From NCBI GenBank assembly GCA_964549025.1, contig CAZJUE010000001.1, positions 1-59,491 on the forward strand: 59,491 nucleotides of DNA. Direction: 5' to 3'. Below are positions 8,300 to 47,921 of the stretch, in pieces. This stretch comes from an uncultured Anaerolineaceae bacterium. GTDB taxonomy: Bacteria > Chloroflexota > Anaerolineae > Anaerolineales > E44-bin32. The position numbers and the translations under genes are program-made. Below the pieces are notes generated by a model. That model was not told where the DNA came from. It did no database searches and saw nothing but the letters and a program-made list of their open reading frames with translations. Each line of letters starts with the position of its first letter. Position 1 is the stretch's first letter.

Positions 8300-10774
<2,475 letters not shown>

Positions 10775-33194: not shown

Positions 33195-34773
33195 CTCCCT
33201 GCAAATGGAGGATCAACTCCACCGTATGGTGCCGATCGTCAGTGGTCACTTTCAGATCGTCCACCATGTTCTTGATCAGAAACAGGCCCCAACCACGGGG
33301 ACTCTGCATGCCCTCCAATTTGGCCTCCAAATCGGGCGTCTCCGGATTTGGAATGTCTTTGCCGCCGCCGCGGTCGGTAATGAACACCGAAAGCCTATCG
33401 GGCGAGCTTTCCAGCCGAATGTTCACCGGCCGATCCTCCTGGTACCGGTTTCCGTGCTCCATGGCGTTCATGGTTGCTTCGCCGACCGCGGTCTTGAGTT
33501 TCTCCAGCCGCCCGCTGGGCAGGCCGAGCGGTTTCACCGCCTCGCTGATCTGCTCGATAGCCAGGCGTTCGTTCCCAACTTGGCTCGGCAGGCTGAATTC
33601 AAGCTGCACCTGTGGGCTCGTATTCGCGGCCGCCTTCCCCAGGTCCGGATTGGCGCCCGCGGCCGCGCATTCCAGCGCCAGCAAAGTGACATCGTCTTCA
33701 TGTAGCCAACCACGCCCAGTGAACTTCTCCAGCTCGGCAACCAGTGTGTCAATTAGATCCGGCCCACCGGGATGCTCTGCCATCAGCTGTTTGACTCGCG
33801 GAAAACCGAACATCTCGCTGCGCTCGTTGTGCGCCTCAGCTAACCCGTCGCTCTGAAACAGTACGGTGTCGCCGGGGGACAGCTCGATCTGGTTTTCCTC
33901 GTACTGCATATCCGGCATTAGACCCAGCGGCATTCCCGTAGCTTTGAGCTCGGTCACTCCTTCCCCCGATCGGCGGAAGGCTAGCCCGTGGCCGGCGTTG
34001 GCGAAACGCAGGGTGCGCTTGGCCGGGTCGAGCACTGAGTACAGGCAGGTGACGAACATATTGTCCGGGATGTCGGGGACCAGCTGATCGTTGACCCGCG
34101 CCAGCACCCTGCCGGGCTCCACCAGCCGCTCGGCGGCCGCCCGCAGCACACTGCGGGTGGTGGCCATCACCATGGCGGCGGGCACTCCCTTGTCGGTCAC
34201 GTCTGCCACGATCAGCACCAGTTTTCCATCCGGAAGCTTCAAGAAGTCGTAGAAATCGCCCCCGACCTCGCGGGCCGGGCGGTAATAAGCTGCCACTTGC
34301 CAGCCGGGAATCTGTGGCAGCTCGCGAGGTAGCAAGGTCTGCTGGATCAGGCGTGCGATCCGCAGCTCCTGTTCCAGCCGCTCGCGGCGGCGGGCCTCGT
34401 CTTTCTGCTGACGCACCAGTTGCGCCACTCGCAGCGCCGGGGCGGCCTGGATAGCCAGGCTGCTGAGCAGCGCCCGGTCGTCCACCGAGTACTCCTGTTC
34501 GCTCAGACGGGGTCCCAGGTTCAGCACACCGATCAGCTCGCCTTGCGCCACCAATGGAATTGTCAGCCGAACCCCGGCCTGCTTGAGCGAATCCAGCGCC
34601 GGTGACTCCAGCTCAAGACGGTCTACCTCCACAACCCCGCGCGCCGACTGAAGGTAGCCGATGAGCGGATCGTTCGGTGCGATCTGGATGCTTCCGTCGT
34701 CGACCTGTGGGTCGTCGGTCTCTTCGCCCGATCGGGCCAAAATCCTCCAGAGATTGCTTATCTGGGTGCTCAT
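33169..34773 (-). CDS. Fused GAF-like / PP2C (SpoIIE) phosphatase / HATPase_c (RsbW-like kinase) protein
   Basis: GAF-like LTIPLVAQGELIGVLNLGPR. PP2C motifs REVGGDFYDF, VADVTDKGVPAAM and SDGLAEA. C-terminal GEATMNAMEHGN...DRGGG...GWGLFLI are the kinase N and G boxes. ATG 34773 is preceded by GGAGGA. Confidence 0.85.
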   Translation of the reverse strand: MSTQISNLWRILARSGEETDDPQVDDGSIQIAPNDPLIGYLQSARGVVEVDRLELESPALDSLKQAGVRLTIPLVAQGELIGVLNLGPRLSEQEYSVDDRALLSSLAIQAAPALRVAQLVRQQKDEARRRERLEQELRIARLIQQTLLPRELPQIPGWQVAAYYRPAREVGGDFYDFLKLPDGKLVLIVADVTDKGVPAAMVMATTRSVLRAAAERLVEPGRVLARVNDQLVPDIPDNMFVTCLYSVLDPAKRTLRFANAGHGLAFRRSGEGVTELKATGMPLGLMPDMQYEENQIELSPGDTVLFQSDGLAEAHNERSEMFGFPRVKQLMAEHPGGPDLIDTLVAELEKFTGRGWLHEDDVTLLALECAAAGANPDLGKAAANTSPQVQLEFSLPSQVGNERLAIEQISEAVKPLGLPSGRLEKLKTAVGEATMNAMEHGNRYQEDRPVNIRLESSPDRLSVFITDRGGGKDIPNPETPDLEAKLEGMQSPRGWGLFLIKNMVDDLKVTTDDRHHTVELILHLQGGGHGRETS

Positions 34774-34798
34774 CTGTCCTCCATTGTGCTTGGCATGA

Positions 34799-34837: not shown

Positions 34838-34945
34838 AGGTAGCGGTATGGCGATCCTCGAACCGCCTGAGGCGGCTGCATTGCGACATGGCGAACCTTG
34901 GACCGCGCGGGCCTGGTGGCGCGATTGCATCGTTTGCACCCGGGA

Positions 34946-36388
34946 TCACTCGCTGCGTTCCCATTCCGCTGCGTGGAGCGCCCGCCACTCCGGGCTCAAT
35001 GGCACAACGCCAAGCTGTCGAACAATCTGTCGGGCCGCCAGCCCGACCACCGCGGTGAAAGTGGGGTAGGCCAGCTCCATCTCAGCCAATTGCTCGACCC
35101 ACATCCCGGCGGCCATACCGGCCGCCACCAGCTGCACGATTTCCAGCGCTTGTTCGCCAGCGGCGTGCGCACCCAGGATCCGATGGTTGTCCTGCGAAAT
35201 GATCAACTTGAAGATTCCCTCTGGACGCCCATCGATCACCGCCCGGTCCAGTTCGGAATACGGAACCACGGCGGTTAGATACTCGGCTCCGGCCTCAACT
35301 ACCGCCTGCTCGGTCAGTCCGACGCTGCCGTATTCAGGATCGGTAAACCCGCCGTGGGGCACGATCTGGTGTTCGAAGCGCAGTTCCGGACCGAGTACCG
35401 CGTTTTCGGCCGCAATGCGTGCCTCATAACCGGCGCTTTGCACCAGCATCATCCGTCCCGTGATGTCGCCGGCGGCGAATATGTGTGGGGCGCTGGTCTG
35501 CAAGTGTTGGTTGGCCGGCACGTAGCCGCGCTCCACCACCACCCCGGCCGCCTCCAGGTTCAACCCCTCGACGTTGCCGACCCAGCCGACCGCCAGCAGC
35601 ACCGCCTCGGCGCTCAGTTTTTGCTCTTCTTCCTTGCGGCTGTAGACCAGCTGCAAATCGTCCGTCTGGCCATTGATGCGCTGCACGCCGTCGATGCCGG
35701 TAATCACTTGGATGCCCCGCTCGGTGAAGCCGCGCTCAACTTCCTCGGAGATCGCCCGATCTTCTATCGCCAGCAAGCGCGGCGCCAGCTCGAGAATGGT
35801 CACCTCAGAGCCAAAAGCAGCGAAGTTGGAAGCCACCTGGCAGCCAGTGGCCGCCCCTCCGACGATGATCAGCGACCGCGGTTGGCGCTTTAGGGTCCAG
35901 GTGTCGCTGTGGGTCAGCGACAACTCCGAACCTGGGAAATCGATCCGACGCGGGTGGCCGCCTACACACAGGATGAACTTCTCACCGTGCAGTCGTTCAC
36001 CGCTGGCGAGCGCAACGGTGTGTGGACCGATGAAACTGGCCGAGCCGACCGCGGTCATGGTGTGCGCACCGGAATCTTCCAGGTGCTGGATCAGCTGCTT
36101 CTTTTCGTGAATGCCATACACTACCCGCCGGGTCCGCCGTAGCAGCTGCCCGAAATCGACCTGCGGCGGCGAACCCATCAGGCCGTACTCGACAAACTGC
36201 TCCGACTCGCGTTGCAGGCGGGCGGCTTTGGCCAGCACCCGGGTGGGAACGCAGCCGTCATTGGTGCAGGTGCCGCCCATGCGGTCGCGCTCGACCAGCG
36301 CCACTGAGGCGCCCAGCTCGCAGGCTCGCAGCGCGGCGGTGACTCCTGCGGGTCCCCCACCAAGCACCACCACATCGAATTCCTTCAC
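34946..36388 (-). CDS. Pyridine nucleotide-disulfide oxidoreductase (dihydrolipoyl dehydrogenase / mercuric reductase-like flavoprotein)
   Basis: VVVLGGGPAGV FAD fold, redox-active GGTCTNDGCVPT, a second dinucleotide fold IIVGGAATGCQ and a dimerisation-domain YPTFT motif. Confidence 0.85.
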   Translation of the reverse strand: MKEFDVVVLGGGPAGVTAALRACELGASVALVERDRMGGTCTNDGCVPTRVLAKAARLQRESEQFVEYGLMGSPPQVDFGQLLRRTRRVVYGIHEKKQLIQHLEDSGAHTMTAVGSASFIGPHTVALASGERLHGEKFILCVGGHPRRIDFPGSELSLTHSDTWTLKRQPRSLIIVGGAATGCQVASNFAAFGSEVTILELAPRLLAIEDRAISEEVERGFTERGIQVITGIDGVQRINGQTDDLQLVYSRKEEEQKLSAEAVLLAVGWVGNVEGLNLEAAGVVVERGYVPANQHLQTSAPHIFAAGDITGRMMLVQSAGYEARIAAENAVLGPELRFEHQIVPHGGFTDPEYGSVGLTEQAVVEAGAEYLTAVVPYSELDRAVIDGRPEGIFKLIISQDNHRILGAHAAGEQALEIVQLVAAGMAAGMWVEQLAEMELAYPTFTAVVGLAARQIVRQLGVVPLSPEWRALHAAEWERSE

Positions 36389-36403
36389 GTTGCTCCCTCG
36401 TGG

Positions 36404-37642
36404 CTATTCATTGCCAGTTCGCCTTCTCACCCAGAGCGATAAGTGGGATGGCTGCATGGTTTCCTGAGCGGTCTCCAATAGCGCCGATTGCATGAGCTCC
36501 AGATCCACCTCCTCGCGCAGGCGAGCCGAAAGCTCGTCCAGCACTCCTTGTGCGTCATACTTGGCCCGATTGAATCGGCGATCGACCGCGTTTTGCACCC
36601 GAAGGCGTAATGGGTTGAACAAGGCAGCCACAACCAGCGTCGAAACCACGACTCCGAACTGGCTCTGGAACGGAAGCAGCTGTTGCGCCAGCGTTACGGA
36701 GCCAGCGAAAACCGCGGCCAAGAGACTGACGACGATTGCATACGCCGCGGTGCGAGAAATGATCCGGTCGATGTCGTAAAGCCGGTATTTAAGGATGGCG
36801 ATCCCGATGGTGGTGGGCAGGCCGACGGACACAAAGATCAATAGGACCGCGTCGAGCTGCCCAGCTGCGGTAAATCCAAATACTGCTCGGGCCACAGTCG
36901 TCAGGAGCAAGGGCGCGATACCTGCGGTGGCGACAAAGAGGACCCATTTGATCTGCTGTCGAGCGTCGCCGACCGATTGCCGGTAGCGCCTGAGCAAGCC
37001 AACCAGCGACAGCACAACTGCCAGAGCCAACAGCGGCTCCACCGCCGAGCCTACGGCGGTGTTGATACGCTCGACCGCGGGAAGGTGGAGCGGATTGCTT
37101 GCACTCAGCAGGCATTCGGTGACAACTCCCTCCGTCCACACGGGCTCAACGCACACGGTTGACGTTCCGAACGCAGGGAGCAAAAGATACAACAGAATCA
37201 GGACACCGTTCGCCCAAAGCACAATCCGCCATCGGCGACTGGGAAGCTGGCCGTCGGGGAACAGCAGCACGCCGGGTCCAAGGATCAGCAGAATCGACAG
37301 GGCATACAGCCACCCACCCGTCTGAATCAGAACGGCGGCCGCGGAATCGTTTCCCGCATGGGCCTGGAGTGGGGCCATCGTTTCAATCACGTTACCGATC
37401 GTCCCTGCTACCCCGAAAGCCAGGAAGATCCATCCCAGTGGATTCCACGGAAGTTTGATCGCAATCAGCCATCCCACCAACGGGAAGACCAAAAACGAAA
37501 GCGCGAACCCCACGTCAAATGCAGCTAGCGCCTGGGCGCCTTGCGATCCCAGGATGAAAACGAACGCCAGCCATGTCGTGACAACCGATACCAATAAAAG
37601 CGTGGCCAGCGCGCTCGTCCAGCGGCGGCGTGAGCTGCTCAT
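36404..37642 (-). CDS. Polytopic membrane protein, kinase-less sensor-like family (member 5)
   Basis: LLFPDGQLPSRRWR, ARQQIKWV, ILKYRLYDIDRIISRT and C-terminal FNPLRLRVQNAVDRRFNRAKYDA...ETMQPSHLSLWVRR. Strong SD AAGGAG. Confidence 0.7.
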   Translation of the reverse strand: MSSSRRRWTSALATLLLVSVVTTWLAFVFILGSQGAQALAAFDVGFALSFLVFPLVGWLIAIKLPWNPLGWIFLAFGVAGTIGNVIETMAPLQAHAGNDSAAAVLIQTGGWLYALSILLILGPGVLLFPDGQLPSRRWRIVLWANGVLILLYLLLPAFGTSTVCVEPVWTEGVVTECLLSASNPLHLPAVERINTAVGSAVEPLLALAVVLSLVGLLRRYRQSVGDARQQIKWVLFVATAGIAPLLLTTVARAVFGFTAAGQLDAVLLIFVSVGLPTTIGIAILKYRLYDIDRIISRTAAYAIVVSLLAAVFAGSVTLAQQLLPFQSQFGVVVSTLVVAALFNPLRLRVQNAVDRRFNRAKYDAQGVLDELSARLREEVDLELMQSALLETAQETMQPSHLSLWVRRRTGNE

Positions 37643-37775
37643 TACCGCTCCTTAAGCCAGAGCGCACCAAGCGAGAGGAGGATCGATCGCTCGAGGATCC
37701 CAAGCGGATCGATCATCCACGAGCGTTTGCGCGGGATTGCAGACCGAGGTCGAGAATCCATCCTCCGAACTCAAC

Positions 37776-38525
37776 TCACTGCTCGACGATAAGGGTGCCG
37801 CGCATCCCGGCTTCAGTATGACCGGGGATCGCACAGACGAACTCGTACCTGCCGGGCTGCGCCTCGAAGGTAACTGACAACTCGGCTCCGACCGGCACCC
37901 GCAGATCGACGCCCAGTTCTTCGATGGTGAAGGTGTGCCAGAACAAATCGTCATTGGCCATGGTCACTGTGATTTCCCCGGCCGGGGCAGCGATCTCGGA
38001 ATCAGAAAATGCAACGTTCTTAGCCAGCAGCAGAACGTCCCCGGTTGCCGGCTCTGGGCGCGCGGCGCTGTTGCCCCAGATTATCAACCCCAGCAGCAAC
38101 CCAATCGAAGCGATCAGCCCCATCCGCGGAGCGCTGGTGGACAGTGAGTTTTCGGCCACGAGGAATCCAACAGCGGATACCAGGCCTAGCAACGCGACTG
38201 CCGCCAGTACTGCGGAGGTCATCGTCGACGACAGTTCGGAACCGACGCGGATATTGGTTATCGCCGCAGTCAGCATGAAGAACAGGGTGATGGCGGATGC
38301 GGCGGCCAGGCCGACGGCCCCCAGCCGCCCTCTGCGTACCCGAGTCATCCAGGTTGCCGCCGCGAATCCGACGGTCACCACCCCGCCCTCCAGGTCACCG
38401 AGTCCCAAAGAGACCAGGCCCATGGTGCCGGCGGCCAGGATGCCGGCGATGGTCACCAGTCGCCGCCAGGTCAGTCCCTGACCGACCGGCTCCGGATCGA
38501 CGTTACGCTGCGTGGGAATGCTCAT
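37776..38525 (-). CDS. Membrane-anchored cupredoxin (type-1 copper) protein
   Basis: About 5 N-terminal TM helices, then a cupredoxin domain with ligand pattern FWHTF...FVCAIPGHTEAGM (His...Cys-x3-His-x4-Met). Confidence 0.75.
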   Translation of the reverse strand: MSIPTQRNVDPEPVGQGLTWRRLVTIAGILAAGTMGLVSLGLGDLEGGVVTVGFAAATWMTRVRRGRLGAVGLAAASAITLFFMLTAAITNIRVGSELSSTMTSAVLAAVALLGLVSAVGFLVAENSLSTSAPRMGLIASIGLLLGLIIWGNSAARPEPATGDVLLLAKNVAFSDSEIAAPAGEITVTMANDDLFWHTFTIEELGVDLRVPVGAELSVTFEAQPGRYEFVCAIPGHTEAGMRGTLIVEQ

Positions 38526-39097
38526 GGTTGGGTACCTTTCGGTTCAAGCTCTCGAATCCAGAGCGAGAGGTGCGCCGGCTGCAGACCCAGAAAGAAGACC
38601 ACATCACTGGAGAAGATCAGCGAGGTTGCCCGCAGCAACCCACGCGCGGCCGGCAGGTCTGGTCGCCGGAGGTATGCGAATACCGCCATCGCCAGCATGT
38701 AGATCAGGAACAGGTAGCCAGGCCAGTTGGTCAGCAGGCTCGGAAGCAGATTGCGCGCTGCCAGCCGATGGGAGAGCTCGATGAACTCGGATTCGCGATC
38801 CAGCAAATAGGCAAGCTCGACCGGCGGCTGCGCCGTGCCTGGCATTGGGCGGGCCAGCAACGATTCAATTGATGGACCGTTCACTGCAACTATTCGATCA
38901 CGCCGCTGTAGCGGCGATCGCTGGTCTAGGATCTCACCGACGTACAAGCCCTGACCTTCCCGCGGTTCCCTCTGCAGGTCGAGCAGCACCCCATCTCCTG
39001 GCAGCAGTACTCTTGCACCGACGTAGATTGCGCTTGGAAGCACCAAGGCGACGCTCAATACGATCAGCCAGCGACTAGCTGAGGGGGCCGCGTTCAT
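38522..39097 (-). CDS. Short member or derivative of the sensor-like membrane family (member 4)
   Basis: N-terminal TM helix plus a PDZ-like stretch (YVGEILDQRSPLQRRDRIVAVNG). Retains the FAYLRRPD motif and the terminal LQPAHLSLWIRE tail. ATGA overlaps at both ends. Confidence 0.5.
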   Translation of the reverse strand: MNAAPSASRWLIVLSVALVLPSAIYVGARVLLPGDGVLLDLQREPREGQGLYVGEILDQRSPLQRRDRIVAVNGPSIESLLARPMPGTAQPPVELAYLLDRESEFIELSHRLAARNLLPSLLTNWPGYLFLIYMLAMAVFAYLRRPDLPAARGLLRATSLIFSSDVVFFLGLQPAHLSLWIRELEPKGTQP

Positions 39098-39972
39098 TGA
39101 CCGATAGCTGGATCACCAGCATTGCCCCGCAGCCAGAGCGATACAAGGGTGGGCTGCATAGTCTCCTGCCCTGTATTCAGCAGGGACGACTGCATTTCTG
39201 TCAGGTCCACTTCGTCTCGCACCGATTCGCCAAAGGCGCTCAAGGTCTGCGCCGCGTCGTAATCCGCGCGGAAGAATCTCCGATTCACCACCGTTTGTAT
39301 CCGCTGGCGCAGCGGATTGAAGAGCGCCGCGATCAGGCCAATGAGCAGAGCCGCCAGCTGCGCAACCGTCCCCGGAGAGGACTCCATGCTGGGCACCAGC
39401 TGCTCCAACAATGGATCAGCAAACGCGAGCAACGCCAAGGGAAATGCCAGGTAGCGGCCCCAGTCGGGGACGAAGCGGCCGTCTGGAAACAAGAAGATCA
39501 TCAGAATGATCAGCCCAGAGCCAATTGCGCTCAGCGTGTTGTAGAGCGGCGCCAGCGCCGGGGTCTGCTCCGACAAGATGGAGACGTTGTCCGAGATCCC
39601 GTTGATTCCAACCGCAATTAAGGCCATTGAAGCCAGCAATCCGATCCAGTCATCCGACCGGCGCAGATAGATCACTACCCCCAGGCCTGCCCAGGTGAGC
39701 AGCAGCAACTCGGAAGTGGGCAGGAAGCTGGCGTAGAAATCGTGAGAGACCCCCAGCTCTTCGAGCACCGCAAGTTCTTGAGCGGCGAGCTGGAAGGCAG
39801 TGCAATCGTCGCCGCTGCAGAGCTCCTGGTAGTTGGCGATGCTTACAGGACAGGCCGCGACAAAGACCGCGAAGTAGATCACTGCCAGGAGAATCCAAAG
39901 CAGGCGCGCTGACCCCAGCGCCAGCCCAGGCGGCCGCGCGCTCTCAGAGGGACTGGAGATCCAATTGCTCAA
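39094..39972 (-). CDS. Polytopic membrane protein, kinase-less sensor-like family (member 3, short)
   Basis: IYLRRSDDW, LFPDGRFVPDW and C-terminal FNPLRQRIQTVVNRRFFRADYDA...ETMQPTLVSLWLR. Lacks the QQTKW and YRLWDID middle section. TTG start overlaps the upstream stop. Confidence 0.62.
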   Translation of the reverse strand: MSNWISSPSESARPPGLALGSARLLWILLAVIYFAVFVAACPVSIANYQELCSGDDCTAFQLAAQELAVLEELGVSHDFYASFLPTSELLLLTWAGLGVVIYLRRSDDWIGLLASMALIAVGINGISDNVSILSEQTPALAPLYNTLSAIGSGLIILMIFLFPDGRFVPDWGRYLAFPLALLAFADPLLEQLVPSMESSPGTVAQLAALLIGLIAALFNPLRQRIQTVVNRRFFRADYDAAQTLSAFGESVRDEVDLTEMQSSLLNTGQETMQPTLVSLWLRGNAGDPAIGQ

Positions 39973-41273
39973 TGCAGCTGGTGTCCACTTCGCCGGTCCC
40001 TCAGCCAGATGGAAGTTTCGACCGGCTGGACGGTATCCTCAACCACGTCCAGCACTGCCTCGCTCACGTCTGCCAATCCGAAAGCCTGCTGTATCGTGCC
40101 TCCAAACTGCTTAAGGGCAAGATCGGCGTCGTATCGGGTCCGGTAGAAGCGCCGGTCGACCGCAGCCTGGATTCGTCGTCGAAGCGGATTGAAGAATGCG
40201 GCGACGATCAGGGTAGAGCTCACGATCGCCAGATTACTGGTACCCGCAGCTTCGGTTGGAACTATGTCTCCCAGCACGCCGCGAAAGATCTGTTCCAGCG
40301 CAAGGACGCTGATGGCGTAGATGCCGGCCAACAATACGGTCAGGGCTCCGTATCCGAGCGTCCGGCTGACCAGCCGATCGATGTCCCACAGGTGGTGGCG
40401 CGCCACCGAAACCCCGATGGCCAGCGGCATCAGCGCAAACGAGCCCAGGCTGACGGGTACGACCAGGAGTTCCCAGAACAGGCTGGGTATTCCGGGCGAG
40501 CGAAGCACCGGGAGGACGATGATTGGAAGCCACATCGCAGCCAGGGTGAGGGTCATGGCCGCGAACCCATAGACCACCCACTTGGTCTGCCGTCTCTGTG
40601 CCTGATCCCGGGTACCTCTCAGCCGTTGAAGCTGAGCCAGGGCTGCAGCGCCAAACCAGGCTATTAGCCCCAGAAACGGAATAAAGTCGTTGAGCTCCTT
40701 CAGGTCCGGTTTGCGGGTGGGTGGCGGCGCCACGATCCAGCTGAGCGCGAAGAGCAGCGAAACCACCGCAAAGCCCTTGGTCCAGCGCGGCACGAAACGA
40801 CCATCGGGAAACAGGCAGATCGAAATTACCACCGAGCTCCACGCCAACGCTCGGTGCACGAGCACCGGTATGTGCCAGGCTGGGTGCAGTTCGCGCAACG
40901 AGGTGGCGAAATCGCTCATGGACAATCCGAAGGCCAGCAGCGCAAACGAAACAAAGAGCACCATCCAGTCGTCCGATTTGCGTGCGAACAGCAATACACC
41001 GAAGGCCATCAGAGCCACCGCGAATACGACCTCAATCCCCATGATGTAGGAGGCCAGGAATCGCACCGAAAGCCCGAGCCGGTCGAGGGCTTCCGCATAA
41101 TCGGTCGCCAGGATCGAGCCGCTGTTTAGATCAGTCCAGCGCGCCGGCAGACCGATCAGAAAGATTGTCAGCGTCAGCGCGGCAGCAGCCAGCCAGCCGA
41201 GCCGCGCCCGGGTCAGTGCCGGTCGGCGAAGGTTGGTGATGGATGCTCGAGTGCGGGGGGCTTTATCGGCCAT
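39969..41273 (-). CDS. Polytopic membrane protein, kinase-less sensor-like family (member 2)
   Basis: LFARKSDDW, LFPDGRFVPRW, RRQTKWV, HHLWDIDRLVSRT and FNPLRRRIQAAVDRRFYRTRYDA...DTVQPVETSIWLR. Confidence 0.7.
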   Translation of the reverse strand: MADKAPRTRASITNLRRPALTRARLGWLAAAALTLTIFLIGLPARWTDLNSGSILATDYAEALDRLGLSVRFLASYIMGIEVVFAVALMAFGVLLFARKSDDWMVLFVSFALLAFGLSMSDFATSLRELHPAWHIPVLVHRALAWSSVVISICLFPDGRFVPRWTKGFAVVSLLFALSWIVAPPPTRKPDLKELNDFIPFLGLIAWFGAAALAQLQRLRGTRDQAQRRQTKWVVYGFAAMTLTLAAMWLPIIVLPVLRSPGIPSLFWELLVVPVSLGSFALMPLAIGVSVARHHLWDIDRLVSRTLGYGALTVLLAGIYAISVLALEQIFRGVLGDIVPTEAAGTSNLAIVSSTLIVAAFFNPLRRRIQAAVDRRFYRTRYDADLALKQFGGTIQQAFGLADVSEAVLDVVEDTVQPVETSIWLRDRRSGHQLH

Positions 41274-41283
41274 CGCGGTCCGC

Positions 41284-42570
41284 CTATTGCCGTGAGTCCG
41301 GACCGGACTGCTTCAGCCAGATCGAGCTCCGAACCGGCTGTACCGTCTCCTCCACCACTCCGAGCAGTACCTGGCTGAGCTCTTCCAGTTCGACCTCGTC
41401 GCGCACGGTGCCACTGAATCCCGCCAAGGCGCGCGAGGCATCGTAGCGCCGCCGGTAAAAGCGGCGGTCGATGACGTGCTGGATGCGGTTGCGCAATGGA
41501 TTGAAAACCGCCGCGATGCCAAGCGTAGTGGCTACGATGGCCAACTGGTCACCCTGGCCGGTCAGCAGCCGGAACAAGTTGGTGAGCAGCGCCACCCCGG
41601 CCAAGTACAGCACCGCCAGCGTGCCGGTGAGCGCGCCGTATACCAGGGTGCGGTTGATGATGACGTCGATATCCCACAGGCGATAGCGCAAGATGGCGAT
41701 CACGAAGGAGATGGGGAAGATCAGCGTCGCCAGGATGAATCCGGTCAGCCCGATCAGTCGGGCCGCCAGCGTGATGGCAAACAGCGAAGCCCCGACTCGC
41801 TGATAGAAGATGTTGGGAACGGTGAGCCCGCCCAGCTGAGGAAGGATTACGAATGGCAGGAAGTAGCCGAAGGGGCCCATCACCGCTAGCACCAGGCCCA
41901 AGATCGCCCATTTGGTCTGCTGTCGCTGGAGCGGGCTGGAAACTGATAAGTACCGGTGGAACTGAGCGTACAGCCCGGCGCCCGACCAGATCACCAGCAC
42001 CAGCAGCTGCAGCGGCACCGGCCAGGCGGCGACGCTGAGCGGGGATTCGGGGAGGAAGATGGCGAAGGCCATGATCAGTCCCCAGGACCCCACCATGCCG
42101 GCGGTCCAGCGCGGCACGAAACGGCCGTCGGGGAACAGGTAAAGCAAGCTGAGGCCAGAAACCAATCCGATATAGGTTACACAGCGCACCAGGAACAGCC
42201 AGACCGGCAGCACCTCCCCGGCCGGATACATCAGCGACAGCGGGATCCAGGCGCCATTGCTGACCAGCGCCAGCGCCAAAGCCAGCGCCATCCACTCGTC
42301 TGATCGTCGCAAGAAGACGACCACGCCGATCACCAGGTGGAAGGTCACCATCAACAGGTACAACGCCGTCAGATAGGCGCCGTACCCTTCCGGCGTTAGA
42401 CCCAGGTCCTCCACCGAGCGCAGGTCAACCCCGGTCGACAGCCGCCGGAAGAGGCCGGGAATGCCAAAAGCCACCAATCCAACGATTAGCAGCGTCAGCC
42501 CGATCCACAACACGCGGGCCGCGCGCCGCAAGGCTACGGTGTTTTGCTGGTGCAGTGGCTCGGCAGTCAA
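41284..42570 (-). CDS. Polytopic membrane protein, kinase-less sensor-like family (member 1)
   Basis: VFLRRSDEW, LFPDGRFVPRW, QRQQTKW, ILRYRLWDIDVIINRT and FNPLRNRIQHVIDRRFYRRRYDA...ETVQPVRSSIWLK. Confidence 0.7.
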   Translation of the reverse strand: MTAEPLHQQNTVALRRAARVLWIGLTLLIVGLVAFGIPGLFRRLSTGVDLRSVEDLGLTPEGYGAYLTALYLLMVTFHLVIGVVVFLRRSDEWMALALALALVSNGAWIPLSLMYPAGEVLPVWLFLVRCVTYIGLVSGLSLLYLFPDGRFVPRWTAGMVGSWGLIMAFAIFLPESPLSVAAWPVPLQLLVLVIWSGAGLYAQFHRYLSVSSPLQRQQTKWAILGLVLAVMGPFGYFLPFVILPQLGGLTVPNIFYQRVGASLFAITLAARLIGLTGFILATLIFPISFVIAILRYRLWDIDVIINRTLVYGALTGTLAVLYLAGVALLTNLFRLLTGQGDQLAIVATTLGIAAVFNPLRNRIQHVIDRRFYRRRYDASRALAGFSGTVRDEVELEELSQVLLGVVEETVQPVRSSIWLKQSGPDSRQ

Positions 42571-42587
42571 ATCAGATCCCCGATCGG

Positions 42588-43451
42588 CTATTGCAGAGTC
42601 TGCAAGTACATCCAGACGGCAGCCAGCTCATCGTCGGTCATTTCGCCCACCAGCTTCCAGGGCATCAGGCGCGGGTCAAGATCCTCTCCTCGCGGAGTCT
42701 CCCCGGTGCGCAACGCGTGGACGAAATCGGACTGGCTCCAATCTGCCAGATCGCCGCTCTGGGTGAGGTCCAGGCCAGCCCCGGCAGTCGGACCACCACG
42801 CAAGTCGGCACCGTGGCAGATAGCGCAGGCTGTGGCGAGATACTCCCCGTACTCGACGGTAGCGCCGGGTTGTGGCGCGGTCGGGCGCTCGGCGGCGTGA
42901 TCGATGGTCTCAGCCGGGATCAACGAATCGTCGGTGAGCAAAGTGAGGTAAGTCAGCAATCCCAGATTCCTCTCTGGCAGCTGATTGGCGACCGGCGGCA
43001 AGCTCTTGAGGTAGGCGATGATCGCTCCGAGATCACTGTCGCTGATGTAGTAGTAGGAGTTGGAGGGCATCACGATCAGCGGCCGTTCCTCGGGATCCAG
43101 GCCATGTCGGATGGCACGGACCCAGTCCAGGTCGCTGAAAGAGGAACCAACCCCGCCAGCGCCGGAGGTGAGGTTCTTGGCCGAAACCTGTCCGCTAAGC
43201 GGATCATCCAGATATAGCTCACCCTGCAGTTGATCGCCGTGGCACAGCCGGCAGAAGAAGACCGAGCTGACCAGGTGCTGACCGCGCTCGATCGCGGCCT
43301 GGTCGGTTGGAACCGTGATCGGCTCGACCGAAACGGAATGGCGAAGCTCGAGCCGTTGCTCAACGTCGTTCCGGATCACCGTGGTGGCCAGCAGCAGCAG
43401 CGCGGCGGCCGCTACGGCAAGAATCAGCAAATAGCGAAGCAGCCTGCGCAC
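42588..43451 (-). CDS. Dihaem c-type cytochrome with N-terminal membrane anchor
   Basis: Two CxxCH motifs (CRLCHG, CAICHG), each followed by a candidate Met ligand (VMPS, LMPW) and an AYL/MYL..L tail. N-terminal hydrophobic anchor. Confidence 0.85.
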   Translation of the reverse strand: MRRLLRYLLILAVAAAALLLLATTVIRNDVEQRLELRHSVSVEPITVPTDQAAIERGQHLVSSVFFCRLCHGDQLQGELYLDDPLSGQVSAKNLTSGAGGVGSSFSDLDWVRAIRHGLDPEERPLIVMPSNSYYYISDSDLGAIIAYLKSLPPVANQLPERNLGLLTYLTLLTDDSLIPAETIDHAAERPTAPQPGATVEYGEYLATACAICHGADLRGGPTAGAGLDLTQSGDLADWSQSDFVHALRTGETPRGEDLDPRLMPWKLVGEMTDDELAAVWMYLQTLQ

Positions 43452-43455
43452 TCGG

Positions 43456-43878
43456 CTAGGCCTCAGCCTGGCCGGTCAGCCCGGCGGCCTGAGTGCTTTC
43501 TTGCGGTTGCTCCAGCAGCAGCTCGCGCGCTCGTTTGGCGTGCAGGTAGGACACGTAGGTCAAGATGGAAGCGTTCAGCGGGTGCAAGGCTGCCAGGTAG
43601 GGCAGCTCATCCCGCAACCCGGGCAGCACGGTCTGCACGATGTGTAAAACCAGCACTGCCACCAACCAGCCCACCAGCCTGCGGGGGATCCAGCGCAGCA
43701 ATCCCAGCACGATCAGCACCAGTCCTGGCAGCTCGGAAGACCAGCCGAACTCCGTGTGGGTCTGCCACAGGCTGTTCCGAACAAACAGGGACATGCCGGC
43801 CATCACGATGGTGGCCAGCAGCCAGATCACCATCAGCCAGGCAAACCCAATGTAAAGGTAGCTCAAAATCCTGCGCAT
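43456..43878 (-). CDS. Small integral membrane protein (4 TM), unknown function
   Basis: 140 aa with four hydrophobic segments and a conserved-looking LHPLNA. Lies 4 nt upstream of the cytochrome c gene. Possibly DUF6220-like (memory only). Confidence 0.55.
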   Translation of the reverse strand: MRRILSYLYIGFAWLMVIWLLATIVMAGMSLFVRNSLWQTHTEFGWSSELPGLVLIVLGLLRWIPRRLVGWLVAVLVLHIVQTVLPGLRDELPYLAALHPLNASILTYVSYLHAKRARELLLEQPQESTQAAGLTGQAEA

Positions 43879-43946
43879 CGTTCATTCCTCCCAAGGCCCT
43901 TTGCGGGAGCCTCTGCATTCTAAACCGCTGATTCAGGCGGAGGCGT

Positions 43947-44435
43947 TCAGAACGGCTTGAACATCATCAGCCATAAGATCACCAGCGTGCCGCCAAACCC
44001 CAGAACTGCCAGCTGAACCGGCCGCAAGGAGGCCTTGACGGCCAGGATCTCTGGCTCGCTGGCCGGTTCCAGTGCCGGCTGATCGCCGGAGCCCTCGAAG
44101 TACGGCAGCCCGATTACCTTCCGTAGCTTGTGGTAGTGCGCCCGACTCGACCATCCCATGTAAATGCTCATTCCGATCAAGATTAGCAGCGAAGTCCAGA
44201 TCCAGCCCTGGCCCCACCAGTGACCCATGAAGCCGCCGACTACCCCGCCGACCAGCAGCAGCAGCAATGACAGTGCGAACATTGGCCAGCTGTAACTGGA
44301 AAGCTCGAGCAACGCTCGCACTCGATCGAGACTGCGCTCCCGCTGGATTTGAAAAGTCATGACAGTGGTGCCGCCATGAGCCAGCATAAAGCTCATGACG
44401 CCCAGCACATGCAGAAAGATAACCCACCGATACAT
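43947..44435 (-). CDS. DUF2269-like integral membrane protein, paralog 2
   Basis: 163 aa, 4 TM. ATG 44435 (MYRWVIFLHV) chosen because the longer ORF to 44726 overlaps the upstream paralog. C-terminus ILWLMMFKPF is identical to the paralog. Confidence 0.6.
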   Translation of the reverse strand: MYRWVIFLHVLGVMSFMLAHGGTTVMTFQIQRERSLDRVRALLELSSYSWPMFALSLLLLLVGGVVGGFMGHWWGQGWIWTSLLILIGMSIYMGWSSRAHYHKLRKVIGLPYFEGSGDQPALEPASEPEILAVKASLRPVQLAVLGFGGTLVILWLMMFKPF

Positions 44436-44449
44436 CACCACTCTCCCAT

Positions 44450-44944
44450 TTAGAACGGTTTGAACATCATCAACCACAGGATTGCTGCCAGGCCCACTAC
44501 GCCGATACCCGTGAGCAATACCGGACGCAGCCTGGCCTGTAGCGTGGCAACTTCCTCCGGCGACGCAGCTACCGATTTGCGGTCTTCCTTCTTCTGCGGC
44601 GCTTCGTATGCGTCTGGATCCAGCGCGTGGGCGACCCGCATGTTGCCCATTCGACCGATCACCGACATCAGTACTCCCACCACCACAAAGAGGCCGAGCG
44701 ATAGCCAGACCCAGCGCTCTTCCCACCAGCTGCCCATGAAGCTCAGCATGATACCGCTGATCAGTAGAGTGAGAATCGGCACGCCCATGCCACGCTCGCC
44801 GACCTCCCGGACCGCCAGAATCGCCCGGACCCGTTGCGGATTTTGCTCACGCTTCAGCCCGAACATTGCGCTGGCCGTAGCGCCGTGCACCAAAAAAAAG
44901 GCGATCGCGCTGGCAACATGAACGTACAAGATGAGTTGATACAC
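44450..44944 (-). CDS. DUF2269-like integral membrane protein, paralog 1
   Basis: 164 aa, 4 TM. GTG start is preceded by AAGGGAG. C-terminus ILWLMMFKPF. Confidence 0.6.
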   Translation of the reverse strand: MYQLILYVHVASAIAFFLVHGATASAMFGLKREQNPQRVRAILAVREVGERGMGVPILTLLISGIMLSFMGSWWEERWVWLSLGLFVVVGVLMSVIGRMGNMRVAHALDPDAYEAPQKKEDRKSVAASPEEVATLQARLRPVLLTGIGVVGLAAILWLMMFKPF

Positions 44945-45056: not shown

Positions 45057-47921
45057 ATGGAGTTGAAGCTGCATTTGCTCGGCCCGCCGCAGGTGCTGGT
45101 GGGGGATCAGCCGCTGAGCGTTGACACGCGCAAGGCGACGGCATTGCTCATATACCTCAGCCTAACCGGGGAGGTCCAGCGCCGCGAGAGCATCGCTGCC
45201 ATGTTCTGGCCCGAGAGCGACGGTCCACATGCGAAGGCTGCCTTACGCCGAACGCTTTCGTCGCTGCGGAAGGCGTTGGACGGGCGCTGGTTGGAGGCCG
45301 ACCGCGAAGTGCTCTCGCTCTCCGCCGACTGGATGGACTGCATTCGGTTCCGTGAGCTGGTGGAAAGCACTCGCGCCCACAACCATCCCTCCGACCGCGG
45401 CTGTGCGCGCTGCATCGCCCCGCTTAGCGAAGCTGCCGAGCTCTACCGCGGCGACTTCTTGCTGGGTTTCACGTTGCCGGACAGTCCGGGATTTGACGAT
45501 TGGCAGTACTTCCACCTGCTGGCCTACCAACGGTTGCTGTCCGAGGCGCTGCAGCGCTTGGCGGCCGTACATCAGGAACGGCAGGATTTCGAACTGGCCG
45601 CAGAGTATGCCAACCGGTTGCTCGCTCTGGACCAGCTCAACGAATCCGCTCATCGCTGGTTGATGTCGATCTACGCTCGCTCTGGAAATCGCCAGCTGGC
45701 GCTCCGGCAGTATCAGGACTGTGTTCGGGTGCTGCAGGAGGAGATCGGAGCGCCACCGTTGGATGAGACCGTCGAGTTGCATGAGCGAATCGTCGCCGGG
45801 GAACTGGAGGATTATGCCACTCCCGTTGGCATACCCGAGCTGCCGCCTCACCAGACGGCAGTGATTGCCGGCGATTTGCCGCTGATCGCTCGAGAAGACG
45901 AACTTTCTGCGATGCGGGCCTGGTATGCCGGAATCCAAGGTGCCTCGCGAGTGCTGATCGTCGAGGGCGAATTGGGGATCGGCAAATCCCGACTGGCAGC
46001 CGACTTTGCCAGCGAGCTGGCCGCCGCGGGGGCCAGGCTGGTGGAAACCCGCTGCTATCCAGACGAGTCCACCTACGCCTACCGCCCGTGGATTGACGCC
46101 CTGCGCTCCGGGCTGGAATTGCCTGAAGCCAAGCAGCGGCTCGATCAACTGCCCGACTTATGGTTGGCGGAGGCGGCCCGCCTGATACCCGAGCTTTGGG
46201 AGCTCTTCCCCCGGCTGGAGCCGCAGCAGGAGGCCGTCGGCCCCAGTGGTCAGGACCGCTTTCTGGAGTCGCTGGCCCAGGTCACCTCCGCCATGCTGGC
46301 AGGAGAGCAGCCGGGGGTGGTGCTGCTGGACGACCTGCACTGGACAGATGAAGCTTCACTGGACTTCTTGACCTATCTCCTGAGACACGTAAAGCAGCAA
46401 CCGATGTTGGTGGTGGCTGGCTGGCGAATAGAGGGTTTGGACGGCGAGCAGCAGCTGCGCCAGCTGATGGCTCGCTTTCCGTCAAGCAGCAGCCGGACCG
46501 TCCAGCTGGATCGCTTGGACGCCGATCAGCTGGCTCAACTAGCCCACGCGATCGGCATTGAGGACACCGGTCTGATCAAGCTGTTGCAGCGAGAAACCGA
46601 GGGACTGCCGTTCTTTGTCGCCGAGTACCTAGCCGCCATTGAGCCGCAAGCAGGCCAGGCGCCGCCCAAGACGCCGGCCACCATACGGCAGGCGATCGAC
46701 CGTAGATTGAATGCGCTGAGCGGCACTGGCAAGCAATTGCTCAGCACTGCGGCGGTGATCGGGCGGTCATTTGAATTCGAAACCCTTCGGATGGTCAGCG
46801 GTCGCAACCTGGAGGAGACCGTCGCCGGCATCGAGGAGCTGGCCGGGGCCGGTTCGATTCGCGAGTACCCTTCCAGCTCGCCGCGACTTGGTCCGGTCTA
46901 CGACTTTGCGCACGAGAAATTGCGCGAGGTCGCGCTGGAAGGCACCACCCAGGCCCGCCAGCGTTTGCTGCATGCTCGCGCAGCGTCAGCGCTTATCCGT
47001 TTACAGGGACATCGTCAGAGTGAGCTGCTGGCCGACCGCATTGCGCACCACCTGTTGCGGTCGGGTGACGAAGCCGGTGCGGCAGCGATGTATCTTCAAG
47101 CGGGGGAGCACGCTCGGTCGGTGTACGCCAATGAGGAAGCACTGGCCCACTTTCGCAGCGCGCTGGCGCTGGGGGAGGGTGATGAGGCCGCGCTGCACGA
47201 TTCGATCGGCGATCTGCTCACATTGCTTGGCCGCTACGATGAGGCACTGCGCAGTTACCAGGCGGCCGGTGCACAGCTTGAGCAAGGAACCGCGGCCGGC
47301 ATCGAACGCAAATTGGGCGCGCTATACCAGCGGTGGGGGCGCTGGGAACGCGCGCAGCATCATTTCGCGGCTGCGGCCGAGCAGGCGCAAGCCCCGGCCG
47401 AATTGGCGCGAATCTACGCCGATTGGAGCCTGAACGCACACCGCCAGGGAGAACCGGAGCAGGCGGAGCAGCTGATCCAACAAGCGCTTGAGCAGGCACA
47501 GGCTGCTCAAGATCGCGGCGCACTGGCCCAATGTCACAACATCCTGGGCGTCTTGGAACGCGCACGGGGTCGGGCTGAGACAGCCATCCAGCATCTGAAG
47601 CACAGCCTGGAACACGCCGATCAGCTGTCCGATCCGGCTGCGCGCGCGGCGGCGCTGAACAACCTTGCGCTGGCTCTGGCGCAGGACGGTCAATTGGACC
47701 AGGCGTTAGAGGCTGGCAGAGAGGCCTTGGAGATCAGTGAGTCACTCGGCGACCGACATCGGGCAGCCGCACAGCACAGCAACCTGGCCGACCTGCTGCA
47801 TCAGGCCGGCGAGACACAGCAGGCGCAAGAGCACCTTACCGCCTCAGCCGAGCTGTTCGCCGCGGTTGGCGTGGAATCGGGCGAGTTCGAGCCGGAGATC
47901 TGGAAGTTGGTGGAGTGGTGA
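45057..47921 (+). CDS. SARP/AfsR-family regulator (wHTH-BTAD, AAA ATPase, TPR)
   Basis: N-terminal OmpR-type wHTH (LHLLGPPQVLVGDQPL...RKATALLIYL), BTAD (AHRWLMSIYARSGNRQLALRQYQ), P-loop GELGIGKS and C-terminal TPR-like repeats. Confidence 0.85.
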   Translation: MELKLHLLGPPQVLVGDQPLSVDTRKATALLIYLSLTGEVQRRESIAAMFWPESDGPHAKAALRRTLSSLRKALDGRWLEADREVLSLSADWMDCIRFRELVESTRAHNHPSDRGCARCIAPLSEAAELYRGDFLLGFTLPDSPGFDDWQYFHLLAYQRLLSEALQRLAAVHQERQDFELAAEYANRLLALDQLNESAHRWLMSIYARSGNRQLALRQYQDCVRVLQEEIGAPPLDETVELHERIVAGELEDYATPVGIPELPPHQTAVIAGDLPLIAREDELSAMRAWYAGIQGASRVLIVEGELGIGKSRLAADFASELAAAGARLVETRCYPDESTYAYRPWIDALRSGLELPEAKQRLDQLPDLWLAEAARLIPELWELFPRLEPQQEAVGPSGQDRFLESLAQVTSAMLAGEQPGVVLLDDLHWTDEASLDFLTYLLRHVKQQPMLVVAGWRIEGLDGEQQLRQLMARFPSSSSRTVQLDRLDADQLAQLAHAIGIEDTGLIKLLQRETEGLPFFVAEYLAAIEPQAGQAPPKTPATIRQAIDRRLNALSGTGKQLLSTAAVIGRSFEFETLRMVSGRNLEETVAGIEELAGAGSIREYPSSSPRLGPVYDFAHEKLREVALEGTTQARQRLLHARAASALIRLQGHRQSELLADRIAHHLLRSGDEAGAAAMYLQAGEHARSVYANEEALAHFRSALALGEGDEAALHDSIGDLLTLLGRYDEALRSYQAAGAQLEQGTAAGIERKLGALYQRWGRWERAQHHFAAAAEQAQAPAELARIYADWSLNAHRQGEPEQAEQLIQQALEQAQAAQDRGALAQCHNILGVLERARGRAETAIQHLKHSLEHADQLSDPAARAAALNNLALALAQDGQLDQALEAGREALEISESLGDRHRAAAQHSNLADLLHQAGETQQAQEHLTASAELFAAVGVESGEFEPEIWKLVEW

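Follow-up and report, generated by a model that had tools for sequence, protein, structure and literature searches.

What can a membrane input domain do when the kinase that should follow it is missing? A stretch of 59,491 nucleotides from an uncultured Anaerolineaceae bacterium (the window) raises this question: the original prediction, made from the sequence alone, recognised in it a tandem array of five sensor-like polytopic membrane paralogs that end where a kinase would be expected.

Integrity of the five array genes

All five predicted open reading frames are present, on the minus strand, and are designated A to E here:

41284..42570, minus strand: paralog A, 428 aa, full-length sensor module of ten transmembrane helices with a GAF stub (family profile E 1.7e-204)
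39969..41273, minus strand: paralog B, 434 aa, full-length and fast-evolving, with all motifs (family profile E 2.6e-125)
39094..39972, minus strand: paralog C, 292 aa, internally deleted (family profile E 4.8e-55)
38522..39097, minus strand: D, 191 aa, truncated remnant of a paralog bearing a PDZ-like region (similarity to L091:11062-12474)
36404..37642, minus strand: paralog E, 412 aa, full-length and divergent, without LRRSDEW (family profile E 1.1e-80)

The genes are packed as tightly as had been described, with ATGA overlaps at three junctions (B/C, C/D and D/cupredoxin) and intergenic gaps of 17 nt from the cytochrome c gene to A, 10 nt from A to B and 15 nt from E to the next gene. A gap of 133 nt between the cupredoxin gene and E had gone unmentioned.

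Homology among all five had also been proposed. Profile searches bore this out for A, B, E and C (E 1.7e-204 to 4.8e-55), and D gave no match to the family profile; its sole match in 5.8 billion proteins was D itself. It does share 54-55% identity over 179 aa with the N-terminus of an intact 470-aa paralog (L091:11062-12474) in a close relative. The ordered motifs ascribed to every copy form a complete set in A and B only: LRRSD(D/E)W is missing from E, C is without QQTKW and YRLWDID, and D retains just LRRPD and the '..QPAHLSLWIRE' end, in a layout of an N-terminal helix, a weak PDZ-like region (Pfam PDZ E 0.06) and two helices. In C, the four N-terminal helices (with LRRSDDW and LFPDGRFVPDW) run straight into the last helix, with the C-terminal module behind it; the middle helices are missing in the alignment, and two stretches of the family profile, within positions 14-424, are matched over 292 aa. 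C may thus be a reduced version of the sensor module. Together, the profile, motif and D-homology results indicate that the array, as read from its sequence, is uneven, comprising three full copies (A, B and E), one internally deleted copy (C) and one truncated remnant (D).

The full copies also differ in their rates of change. Paralog A, the cytochrome-c-linked copy, evolves slowly (83% identity and a dN/dS of 0.14 relative to its ortholog in L091), B shares just 38% identity with its positional counterpart there, and E shares 48%.

The membrane module and its kinase relatives

The sensor module has ten transmembrane helices, with both termini in the cytoplasm and all conserved motifs on the cytoplasmic face. 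It continues into a juxtamembrane helix (FNPLR..IDRRFYR.KYDA) that precedes only helix 1 and strand 1 of a GAF domain. An AlphaFold2 model of A was all-helical (pLDDT 82.7), with the tail, residues 410-428, disordered in the monomer (pLDDT < 50).

As predicted, profile searches with A-E against Pfam, NCBIfam and PADLOC found no output domain in any copy, and no match of any kind in Pfam, in PADLOC or above cut-off in NCBIfam. In particular, HisKA_3 was not matched at E<=1 in Pfam, HATPase_c was matched in neither Pfam nor NCBIfam, and none of the Pfam GAF profiles (PF01590, PF13185, PF13492) was matched; the alignment with the GAF domains of the longer relatives described below extends over helix 1 and strand 1 only. 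A sequence search of the PDB yielded only E values of at least 0.19 and hence no related solved structure, and Foldseek against the PDB returned generic helical bundles only (best E 0.09, TM<=0.32). We found no published description of the family. The expectation that it belongs to no curated family therefore held.

Rare long relatives connect the module to signal transduction. In these proteins (for example L071:7839-9941, L084:7839-9959, P0257 and P0316) the shared membrane region and RRF..YDA linker are followed by GAF, HisKA_3 and HATPase_c domains, and one further long relative joins the same membrane region and linker to a GAF-STAND NTPase. The first 390-430 residues of the long kinases match the family profile, up to its position ~392-426 of 430. 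The original prediction is thus correct in stating that this region occurs as the N-terminal input part of histidine kinases, and service as the input of both kinases and a STAND NTPase is typical of sensor domains. The proposed endpoint needs adjustment: the kinase part is indeed lacking, and in the alignment the stand-alone proteins stop inside the GAF domain, exactly where its helix 1 and strand 1 end in the long forms. With this adjustment, the evidence supports the predicted input modules, and we give roughly even odds to A, B and E acting as free-standing membrane sensors, each built like the input part of a kinase but lacking its output.

The short form is the norm in a large family. 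It comprises 33,444 clusters at 50% identity (> 8,600 at E<=1e-30) and ranges over Chloroflexota and Rubrobacteria, being multi-copy in the latter and in Chloroflexota from soil and sediment; arrays of 2-9 copies are frequent. Lengths of 400-460 aa prevail in most of the best 150 of the 33,444 representative clusters. By the family profile, nearly all of ~190 relatives in 87 loci terminate <=30 residues past the SLWLR motif, and the window proteins end 7-11 residues past it. When 12-residue segments are ranked by conservation among 124 non-redundant members, the tail segment 'eTmQP.hvSLWL' comes fourth.

These data bear directly on whether the open reading frames are decayed histidine kinases, pseudogenes minus their GAF-kinase part. 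Such decay would fit the clear damage in C and D, the split or partial copies that also occur in arrays of other genomes, and an architecture equivalent to a long form cut past GAF strand 1. It is nevertheless highly improbable: thousands of clusters from two phyla keep the truncated length, purifying selection acts on A, and few segments are more conserved than the tail. Moreover, since the junctions overlap or leave 10-17 nt, there is no room for a kinase remnant downstream in another frame. For A, B and E, the conservation data refute decay.

The surrounding island and its partner-switching genes

The array belongs to a run of 17 co-directional genes separated by gaps of -26 to 172 nt, with a regulator gene diverging from it:

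45057..47921, plus strand: divergent BTAD-AAA_16-TPR (SARP/AfsR-like) regulator (Pfam; AfsR similarity weak; ~20 loci)
44450..44944, minus strand: DUF2269 membrane protein, first gene of the co-directional run (Pfam DUF2269 1.1e-09)
43947..44435, minus strand: DUF2269-like membrane protein, starting at MYRWVIF (orthologs 162-164 aa; the listed ORF 43947-44726 is overcalled)
43456..43878, minus strand: DUF6220 membrane protein (Pfam 5e-11; conserved in L001, L007, L008, L009 and L091)
42588..43451, minus strand: diheme c-type cytochrome, directly upstream of A (Pfam Cytochrom_C 5e-13, two stretches)
37776..38525, minus strand: membrane-anchored cupredoxin, 249 aa, within the array (Pfam Cupredoxin_1 2.1e-11, Copper-bind 6.5e-07)
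34946..36388, minus strand: class I flavoprotein disulfide reductase, directly after E (Pfam Pyr_redox_2 and Pyr_redox_dim 7e-56, CxxxxC)
33169..34773, minus strand: phosphatase with truncated GAF, coiled-coil linker, PP2C (SpoIIE) and RsbW-like HATPase_c_2 (Pfam)
32841..33194, minus strand: STAS protein 1, RsbV-like (Pfam STAS 3.9e-11; conserved in 17 loci)
32411..32761, minus strand: STAS protein 2 (Pfam STAS 5.5e-13)
31611..32369, minus strand: uncharacterised soluble protein, paralog 1 of 2 (no Pfam or NCBIfam match; conserved in 18 loci)
30795..31538, minus strand: uncharacterised soluble protein, paralog 2 of 2 (paralog of the 31611..32369 product)
29331..30761, minus strand: CrtI/amine-oxidase-like FAD protein at the island end (Pfam NAD_binding_8, DAO, Amino_oxidase; 20 loci)

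Orthologs of these genes flank family arrays in many loci (phosphatase 20, STAS 17, reductase 16, BTAD regulator ~20, CrtI-like protein 20, the two uncharacterised proteins 18) from Anaerolineae, Ktedonobacteria, Chloroflexia and Rubrobacteraceae, with the gene order permuted in the last of these. The reductase orthologs, in their 16 loci, lie right after the family arrays; the NCBIfam matches of the reductase itself to LpdA and MerA are below cut-off. Judged by this synteny, the family genes sit in a predicted signalling island that is conserved across two phyla. Its core is a partner-switching set, as the PP2C phosphatase, the HATPase_c_2 kinase and the STAS antagonist are encoded together in the window. 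The association of the membrane family with this set is conserved, though not beside every copy: by a strict test, the reductase or phosphatase comes right after the array in ~14 of the 51 loci with enough downstream sequence, and most singleton copies, chiefly those of Ktedonobacteria and Chloroflexia, lie beside different genes. The island genes examined include no sigma factor gene, and the only transcription factor near the island is the BTAD-AAA-TPR regulator.

The neighbourhood anticipated for the array, cupredoxin and cytochrome c genes, proved to be only part of the pattern. Cytochrome c orthologs (18 sources in all) recur in Anaerolineae, lying directly upstream of the first family gene in 8/8 window-like loci checked, and they also precede the long-form kinases in L071 and L084; the neighbours shared across phyla are the PP2C/RsbW/STAS genes and the flavoproteins. 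An ortholog of the cupredoxin is located after E in L091, and the arrays of relatives contain a Rieske or protoglobin-Rieske protein.

These electron carriers suggest another role, in which A-E would assemble with cytochrome c, cupredoxin or Rieske protein, DUF2269 and DUF6220 into a membrane complex with a redox or transport function; the link to the phosphatase would then reflect co-regulation only, and the tail would mediate homo- or hetero-oligomerisation among paralogs. Hetero-oligomers fit tandem paralogs, copper or iron-sulfur carriers lie inside the array, the diheme cytochrome is fixed in front of it in the window as in the loci just mentioned, and two flavoproteins are conserved in the island. 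We nonetheless regard such a complex as unlikely. Histidine kinases and a STAND NTPase use this membrane domain as their N-terminal input; no transporter, oxidoreductase, membrane enzyme or cofactor-binding family or fold was significantly matched by profile or structure; and no Cys, His or other metal, heme or cofactor ligand is conserved across the family. In addition, copies in Rubrobacteraceae and Ktedonobacteria have no adjacent cytochrome c, and, apart from the window, just its close relatives have the cupredoxin with the array, the sole other match (L069) being weak and on the opposite strand.

The modules might also act in trans with other partners, such as soluble GAF-HisKA_3 kinases, or as decoys that heterodimerise with long-form kinases. 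In the decoy version, contacts of the membrane domain and linker helix would tune two-component signalling rather than the PP2C module. Many singleton copies do lack the phosphatase in their vicinity, and long forms occur in related genomes, sometimes at the same position after cytochrome c and beside LuxR-type response regulators. We consider kinase partners improbable here, given that neither the window's co-directional run (29331-44944) nor its close relatives encode a HisKA_3 kinase or response regulator there and that what recurs beside the arrays is the PP2C/STAS set rather than kinases.

A candidate split GAF domain and its precedents

The partner-switching phosphatase itself carries clear SpoIIE (Pfam 1.5e-50) and HATPase_c_2 (2e-22) domains, the latter with similarity to RsbW and SpoIIAB; ortholog alignment places its likely start at M37 of the listed ORF 33169-34881. 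Its GAF domain is incomplete at the N-terminus. The Pfam match spans only profile positions 45-133 of 133, confident alignment with the long-form GAFs is confined to the last two strands and the final helix, and the modelled N-domain has just two long strands plus one 2-residue strand or bridge. From these comparisons, the phosphatase GAF appears to lack the same piece that the sensors carry, which suggests a plug-in wiring of several sensors to one switch. One observation points the other way: a MAFFT alignment makes the phosphatase segment 'APNDPLIGYLQSA' alignable with GAF helix 1, so the phosphatase might own a self-sufficient mini-GAF.

Natural in-frame fusions of tail and phosphatase N-domain provide a further view. 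In the AlphaFold2 model of fusion P0121, a fragment of unclear provenance, the tail motif turns into a strand (pLDDT ~70-82), and comparison of the fused model with solved GAF structures gives E values as low as 3.8e-06 and, against isolated GAFs of 161-186 residues, TM scores of 0.56-0.66; as a single-chain prediction, the model is biased towards packing the pieces together. The complete GAF fold appeared only with the tail fused to the phosphatase N-domain; A-E alone carry no complete one. The other two of the three fusions, P0124 and P0130, lie in frameshifted or decayed loci. We therefore put forward only tentatively, and as a somewhat doubtful proposal, that a GAF domain is split between two polypeptides, the many interchangeable sensors holding helix 1 and strand 1 and the one cytoplasmic PP2C/RsbW-type protein the rest, with completion in trans as the coupling. 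The thousands of orphan copies may likewise use the stub on other effectors with a truncated GAF.

The broader reading, that stand-alone sensors feed a partner-switching cascade, possibly by way of GAF completion of the phosphatase, has in our estimate about an equal prospect of being right or wrong. In the scheme that we infer, its binding in trans, its signal and its downstream target included, the membrane module would sense a cue linked to the membrane or to redox state. This cue plausibly connects with the electron carriers encoded nearby (diheme cytochrome c, cupredoxin or Rieske protein) and with the flavoproteins; the signal is probably redox-related. The conserved C-terminal helix-strand stub would then dock onto the phosphatase's N-terminally incomplete GAF and complete its fold. 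Docking would order the coiled-coil linker and switch the PP2C dimer, as RsbT does for RsbU, and several diverging paralogs could either vie for a single phosphatase or each supply it with a further input.

An output-less kinase input domain in a PP2C/RsbW/STAS island would give a name and a testable role to thousands of "hypothetical proteins", and a candidate route by which membrane-level signals reach partner-switching phosphatases in phyla without stressosome-type inputs. It is also a possible case of signalling through domain complementation: if the split GAF is real, one partner-switching output could receive different inputs through tandem sensor paralogs that diverge fast. The analysis further flags a conserved gene set lacking known function, namely the disulfide reductase, the CrtI-like flavoprotein, the two uncharacterised proteins and the SARP-like regulator.

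Among known systems, the unnamed Chloroflexota TM-GAF-HisKA_3-HATPase_c kinases are homologous over the ten-helix region and juxtamembrane helix and share the motifs LFPDGRFVPRW, QQxKW and RYRLWDID..INRT; those of L071 and L084 also share the preceding diheme cytochrome c. Unlike them, the window proteins lack both HisKA_3 and HATPase_c, break off once GAF helix 1 and strand 1 are complete, and carry on their final strand a near-invariant QP...SLWLR motif of their own. PrsK, the XrtA/PEP-CTERM histidine kinase (TIGR02916), is weakly similar in its last helices, linker and GAF start (model positions 187-350, E 1.7e-06 to 3.6e-05), with scores of 22.5 and 27.0 bits that lie far below the curated cut-off of 300 bits for membership; the window proteins differ from it in having no kinase part, an unrelated N-terminal half and a different genomic context.

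On the phosphatase side, Mycobacterium tuberculosis Rv1364c, which represents a type of fused partner-switching protein, combines a PAS input with a fused STAS domain (PMC12143880), whereas here a truncated GAF takes the input position, STAS is found on proteins of its own and genes for membrane modules lie alongside. The precedent for the mechanism is the control of RsbU by RsbT, and of GAF-PPM phosphatases, through a coiled-coil linker (PMC12143880). Like these RsbT-RsbU and GAF-/PAS-PPM systems, the window phosphatase places its PP2C domain behind an N-terminal regulatory domain and a long helical linker; as in RsbT-RsbU systems, RsbW-like and STAS modules follow, and the phosphatase is proposed to be switched on when another protein binds its N-domain and linker. 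In contrast to RsbT, which is soluble, kinase-like and released from the stressosome, the activator proposed here spans the membrane several times; its contact with the phosphatase would complete a GAF fold, and there would be several such paralogous activators.

Five family copies in a co-directional gene run

The family copies lie among 17 co-directional minus-strand genes that extend from 44944 to 29331, with gaps of -26 to 172 nt.

The array (window coordinates, strand, product)
41284-42570, minus, family copy A, 428 aa
39969-41273, minus, family copy B, 434 aa
39094-39972, minus, family copy C, 292 aa
38522-39097, minus, family copy D, 191 aa
37776-38525, minus, membrane-anchored cupredoxin, between D and E
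36404-37642, minus, family copy E, 412 aa

The tight junctions described in the original prediction were recovered: ATGA overlaps connect B to C, C to D and D to the cupredoxin gene, and the remaining array junctions are 10-17 nt apart, except for a 133-nt gap 5' of E. A promoter and terminator scan gave no signal above shuffled background. Judged from orthologs, two ORFs in the run are overcalled: 33169-34881, where the phosphatase most likely starts at M37 (34773), and 43947-44726, where the second DUF2269 gene most likely starts at 44435.

A family profile built from 70 relatives matched A, B, E and C, with E values from 1.7e-204 to 4.8e-55. All family motifs are present in A and B, but their proposed sharing by all five ORFs held only in part, because E lacks the LRRSDEW motif, C lacks its middle and D does not match the profile. 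By alignment, C consists of four N-terminal helices fused straight to the last helix and C-terminal module, the structure of an internally deleted copy. D found no homolog but itself among 5.8 billion proteins. In L091, a locus from a close relative whose A ortholog is 83% identical, its position is occupied by a single intact 470-aa gene; in the product, an N-terminal helix and a weak PDZ-like region are followed by the family membrane domain, and the protein ends in the usual tail. Over the 179 N-terminal residues of this protein D shares 54% identity; it then stops, which identifies it as a truncated remnant. A PDZ-membrane family of its own was ruled out, since D has no homologs and equals the start of this intact paralog. 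The public annotation of D (P0241) is 155 aa long and misses the first helix. Split and partial copies are frequent in the arrays of other genomes too.

Comparison of the window with L091 gives 76-83% identity (dN/dS 0.12-0.16) for A, the cytochrome c, the reductase and the phosphatase but only 38-55% for B, E and D, a contrast that fits a conserved core sensor accompanied by accessory sensors with fast turnover. Conservation and gene packing exclude A, B and E as decayed kinases; for C and D, decay in a modified sense is accepted.

Family distribution and the end of the stand-alone proteins

Scans of all copies against Pfam, NCBIfam and PADLOC gave nothing above cut-off, and a PDB sequence profile search returned only chance matches to nicotinic receptor helices. 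The confident AlphaFold2 model of A is an all-helical bundle (pLDDT 82.7, pTM 0.74) for which Foldseek found only generic 7TM-like bundles in the PDB (E values of at least 0.09). On these results, kinship with transporters or with rhodopsins/GPCRs was ruled out.

With a cut-off of E≤1e-3 the family comprises 33,444 representative clusters, and with E≤1e-30 it comprises 8,616; most of the best 150 clusters are 400-460 aa long. A data set with one genome per species places it in Anaerolineae, Ktedonobacteria, Chloroflexia, Caldilineae and Dehalococcoidia, and also in Rubrobacteraceae and other Actinomycetota, commonly with several loci per genome. Tandem arrays are common, reaching 9 copies in locus L018, 7 in L055 and 6 in each of L017, L038 and L045.

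A minority of relatives are long, with one to three membrane modules followed by a small GAF domain, HisKA_3 and HATPase_c, which bears out the kinship to a kinase input domain stated in the original prediction. The histidine kinases P0292, P0251, P0303 and P0245 (1150-1460 aa) carry two or three family modules before GAF-HisKA_3-HATPase_c, and are the covalent counterpart of the tandem gene arrays. One further relative (L079:7929-11849, 1306 aa) combines the membrane domain with a full GAF and an nSTAND1/AAA NTPase, and no kinase. In another, L024:1256-3112, the membrane domain (profile positions 12-332) precedes an inosine-uridine nucleoside hydrolase domain (Pfam, 1.2e-53); the fusion may be genuine, or the ORF may be overcalled.

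When stand-alone and long-form proteins are aligned, GAF helix 1 falls on the stretch that follows RRFYR.KYDA and GAF strand 1 on the terminal ET(M/V)QP...S(L/I)WLR, where the stand-alone proteins stop. The array proteins had been predicted to end where a kinase would be expected; no kinase domain does follow, but the stop aligns inside the GAF domain, after helix 1 and strand 1, rather than at the kinase border. The tail ranks fourth in conservation among the 12-residue segments of 124 non-redundant stand-alone members drawn from both phyla, outranked only by IDRRFYR.KYDA, TL.IAALF.PLR and DID..INRTLVY, and within the A-type alignment P412 and W418 never vary. By this measure the tail is not vestigial.

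From the helices of the model and the positive-inside rule, we infer ten transmembrane helices with both termini cytoplasmic. This topology would place LRRSDEW, LFPDGRFVPRW, QQTKW, RYRLWDID..NRT and the linker all on the cytoplasmic face, and would leave the periplasmic loops short and variable.

A conserved island around the array

Three close Anaerolineales relatives (L001, L007 and L091) have a common gene order.

Shared gene order
1. Divergent BTAD-AAA-TPR regulator (window 45057-47921, plus)
2. DUF2269 genes
3. DUF6220
4. Diheme cytochrome c
5. Family copies; the array also includes a gene for a Rieske, protoglobin-Rieske or cupredoxin protein
6. Class I flavoprotein disulfide reductase (window 34946-36388, minus)
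7. GAF-PP2C-HATPase_c_2 protein, the phosphatase (window 33169-34773, minus)
8. Two STAS proteins

Orthologs of the window's neighbours among all ORFs of 87 loci (sources; counts include the window and three near-duplicate loci)
Phosphatase: 20
BTAD regulator: about 20
CrtI/amine-oxidase-like flavoprotein: 20
Pair of ~250-aa proteins without assigned family: 18
Cytochrome c: 18
STAS: 17
Disulfide reductase: 16

In Rubrobacteraceae (L032, L045, L055) the same set is reordered as phosphatase, RsbW, STAS, STAS, unknown, flavoprotein, family copies and reductase. Such cohesion of the set in two phyla, in spite of the permuted order, is strong evidence that the island genes are functionally coupled. 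By a strict test, a reductase or phosphatase gene lies immediately 3' of the array in only 14 of the 51 loci with enough downstream sequence, and most singleton copies have unrelated neighbours. For such orphan copies it is possible that the modules act in trans on HisKA_3 kinases, or as decoys, a reading that does not fit the array in the window.

Linkage to cytochrome c is confined to the A-type copy in Anaerolineae, and holds too where that copy is a full kinase, a pattern suggesting a tie between the cytochrome and the signal, not the output. In two such loci from Anaerolineae or Chloroflexota, the diheme cytochrome c gene is directly 5' of the long-form kinase (L071:6824-7771 and 7839-9941; L084:6842-7753 and 7839-9959); the kinase occupies the position of stand-alone A in the window, and LuxR-type response regulators lie nearby.

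The arrays of the three Anaerolineales relatives contain a protoglobin-Rieske fusion or a plain Rieske protein (L001:13830-14834, L007:11429-12418, L091:12575-13243), in place of which the window has only the membrane-anchored cupredoxin. The pairing of a heme-globin sensor domain with a Rieske cluster in one protein is uncommon, and is a hint that the island senses oxygen or redox state. In the cupredoxin (37776-38525), ~140 N-terminal residues with several hydrophobic helices precede the copper domain, so the protein is predicted to be a polytopic membrane-anchored blue copper protein, not a soluble one; its L091 ortholog follows E, whereas in the window it precedes E. The two soluble paralogs of ~250 aa (31611-32369 and 30795-31538, minus) have no Pfam or NCBIfam match; they are conserved in 18 loci, flanked on one side by the STAS genes and on the other by the CrtI/amine-oxidase-like flavoprotein (29331-30761).

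The family might instead form a redox or transport complex whose link to the phosphatase is merely regulatory. We consider this possible but disfavoured: the domain serves as kinase input, and conserved cofactor ligands and fold matches are absent.

A candidate split GAF domain

The phosphatase appears to carry a complementary truncation. Its Pfam GAF match covers profile positions 45-133 only, and hhalign places it on the long-form GAF with confidence only in the C-terminal half, over the two last strands and the final helix, where the likeness is visible in the alignment (GELIGVLNLGPRLSEQEYSVDDRALLSSLAIQAAPALRVAQL vs SEMVGVLALGPRLSGQGYSREDRTLLTSLADQAGTAIYVARL). Since MAFFT also offers an alternative placement of the phosphatase N-terminus on GAF helix 1, the split point is set mainly by Pfam coordinates and AF2 secondary structure.

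A chimeric query retrieved three ORFs in which the family tail runs in frame into a truncated-GAF phosphatase. Two lie in frameshifted loci, and so were not counted as firm proof that fusion occurs naturally; P0121, the third, is a fragment. As Rosetta-stone fusions these ORFs are weak candidates. An AlphaFold2 model of P0121, made from an unpaired alignment in which family C-termini were combined with phosphatases, places family helix 1 at residues 40-55 and the SLWLR strand at residues 60-64 (pLDDT about 70-82). The phosphatase part (pLDDT about 90) is limited to a pair of long strands, a two-residue strand or bridge, a pair of short helices and the long linker helix. When A is modelled as a monomer, the tail is unstructured (pLDDT below 50). 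The fused model matched solved GAF domains (lowest E value 3.8e-06); TM-scores, with isolated GAFs of 161-186 residues as the reference for normalisation, were 0.56-0.66, a coverage that exceeds what the phosphatase piece alone could give. This supports a single predicted GAF fold made of tail and phosphatase N-domain, as seen in the fused chain. That the membrane family signals by a split GAF domain is a tentative proposal, which we rate as somewhat unlikely.

Under the split-GAF proposal, the membrane module would respond to a cue present at the membrane or on its cytoplasmic side, and the stub would dock onto the incomplete GAF of the phosphatase, ordering its coiled-coil linker and PP2C dimer. 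Together with its fused RsbW-like kinase, the phosphatase would then control how far the two STAS proteins are phosphorylated. Among the associated proteins, the cytochrome c, the cupredoxin, Rieske or protoglobin-Rieske protein and the two flavoproteins suggest that the input may be related to redox state, oxygen or metals. Short ORFs encoding only the last helix and C-terminal stub sit within several arrays (L011:13543-13917, L038:5952-6353, L024:4138-4554, L020:503-904), and could be remnants or free stub proteins competing for the same partner.

The component types (membrane input domain, GAF, PP2C, RsbW and STAS) are known. A literature search found no specific description of the conserved island; in the libraries and papers searched, neither the island, the output-less architecture with its conserved terminal GAF stub, the scale and tandem expansion of the family nor the complementary truncation in the phosphatase is described. 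Activation through a linker and PP2C dimer has been shown for RsbT and RsbU, and GAF-, PAS- and receiver-linked PPM phosphatases have been proposed to work in the same manner (PMC12143880). The proposed action of the stub on the phosphatase would, by analogy, resemble that of RsbT on RsbU.
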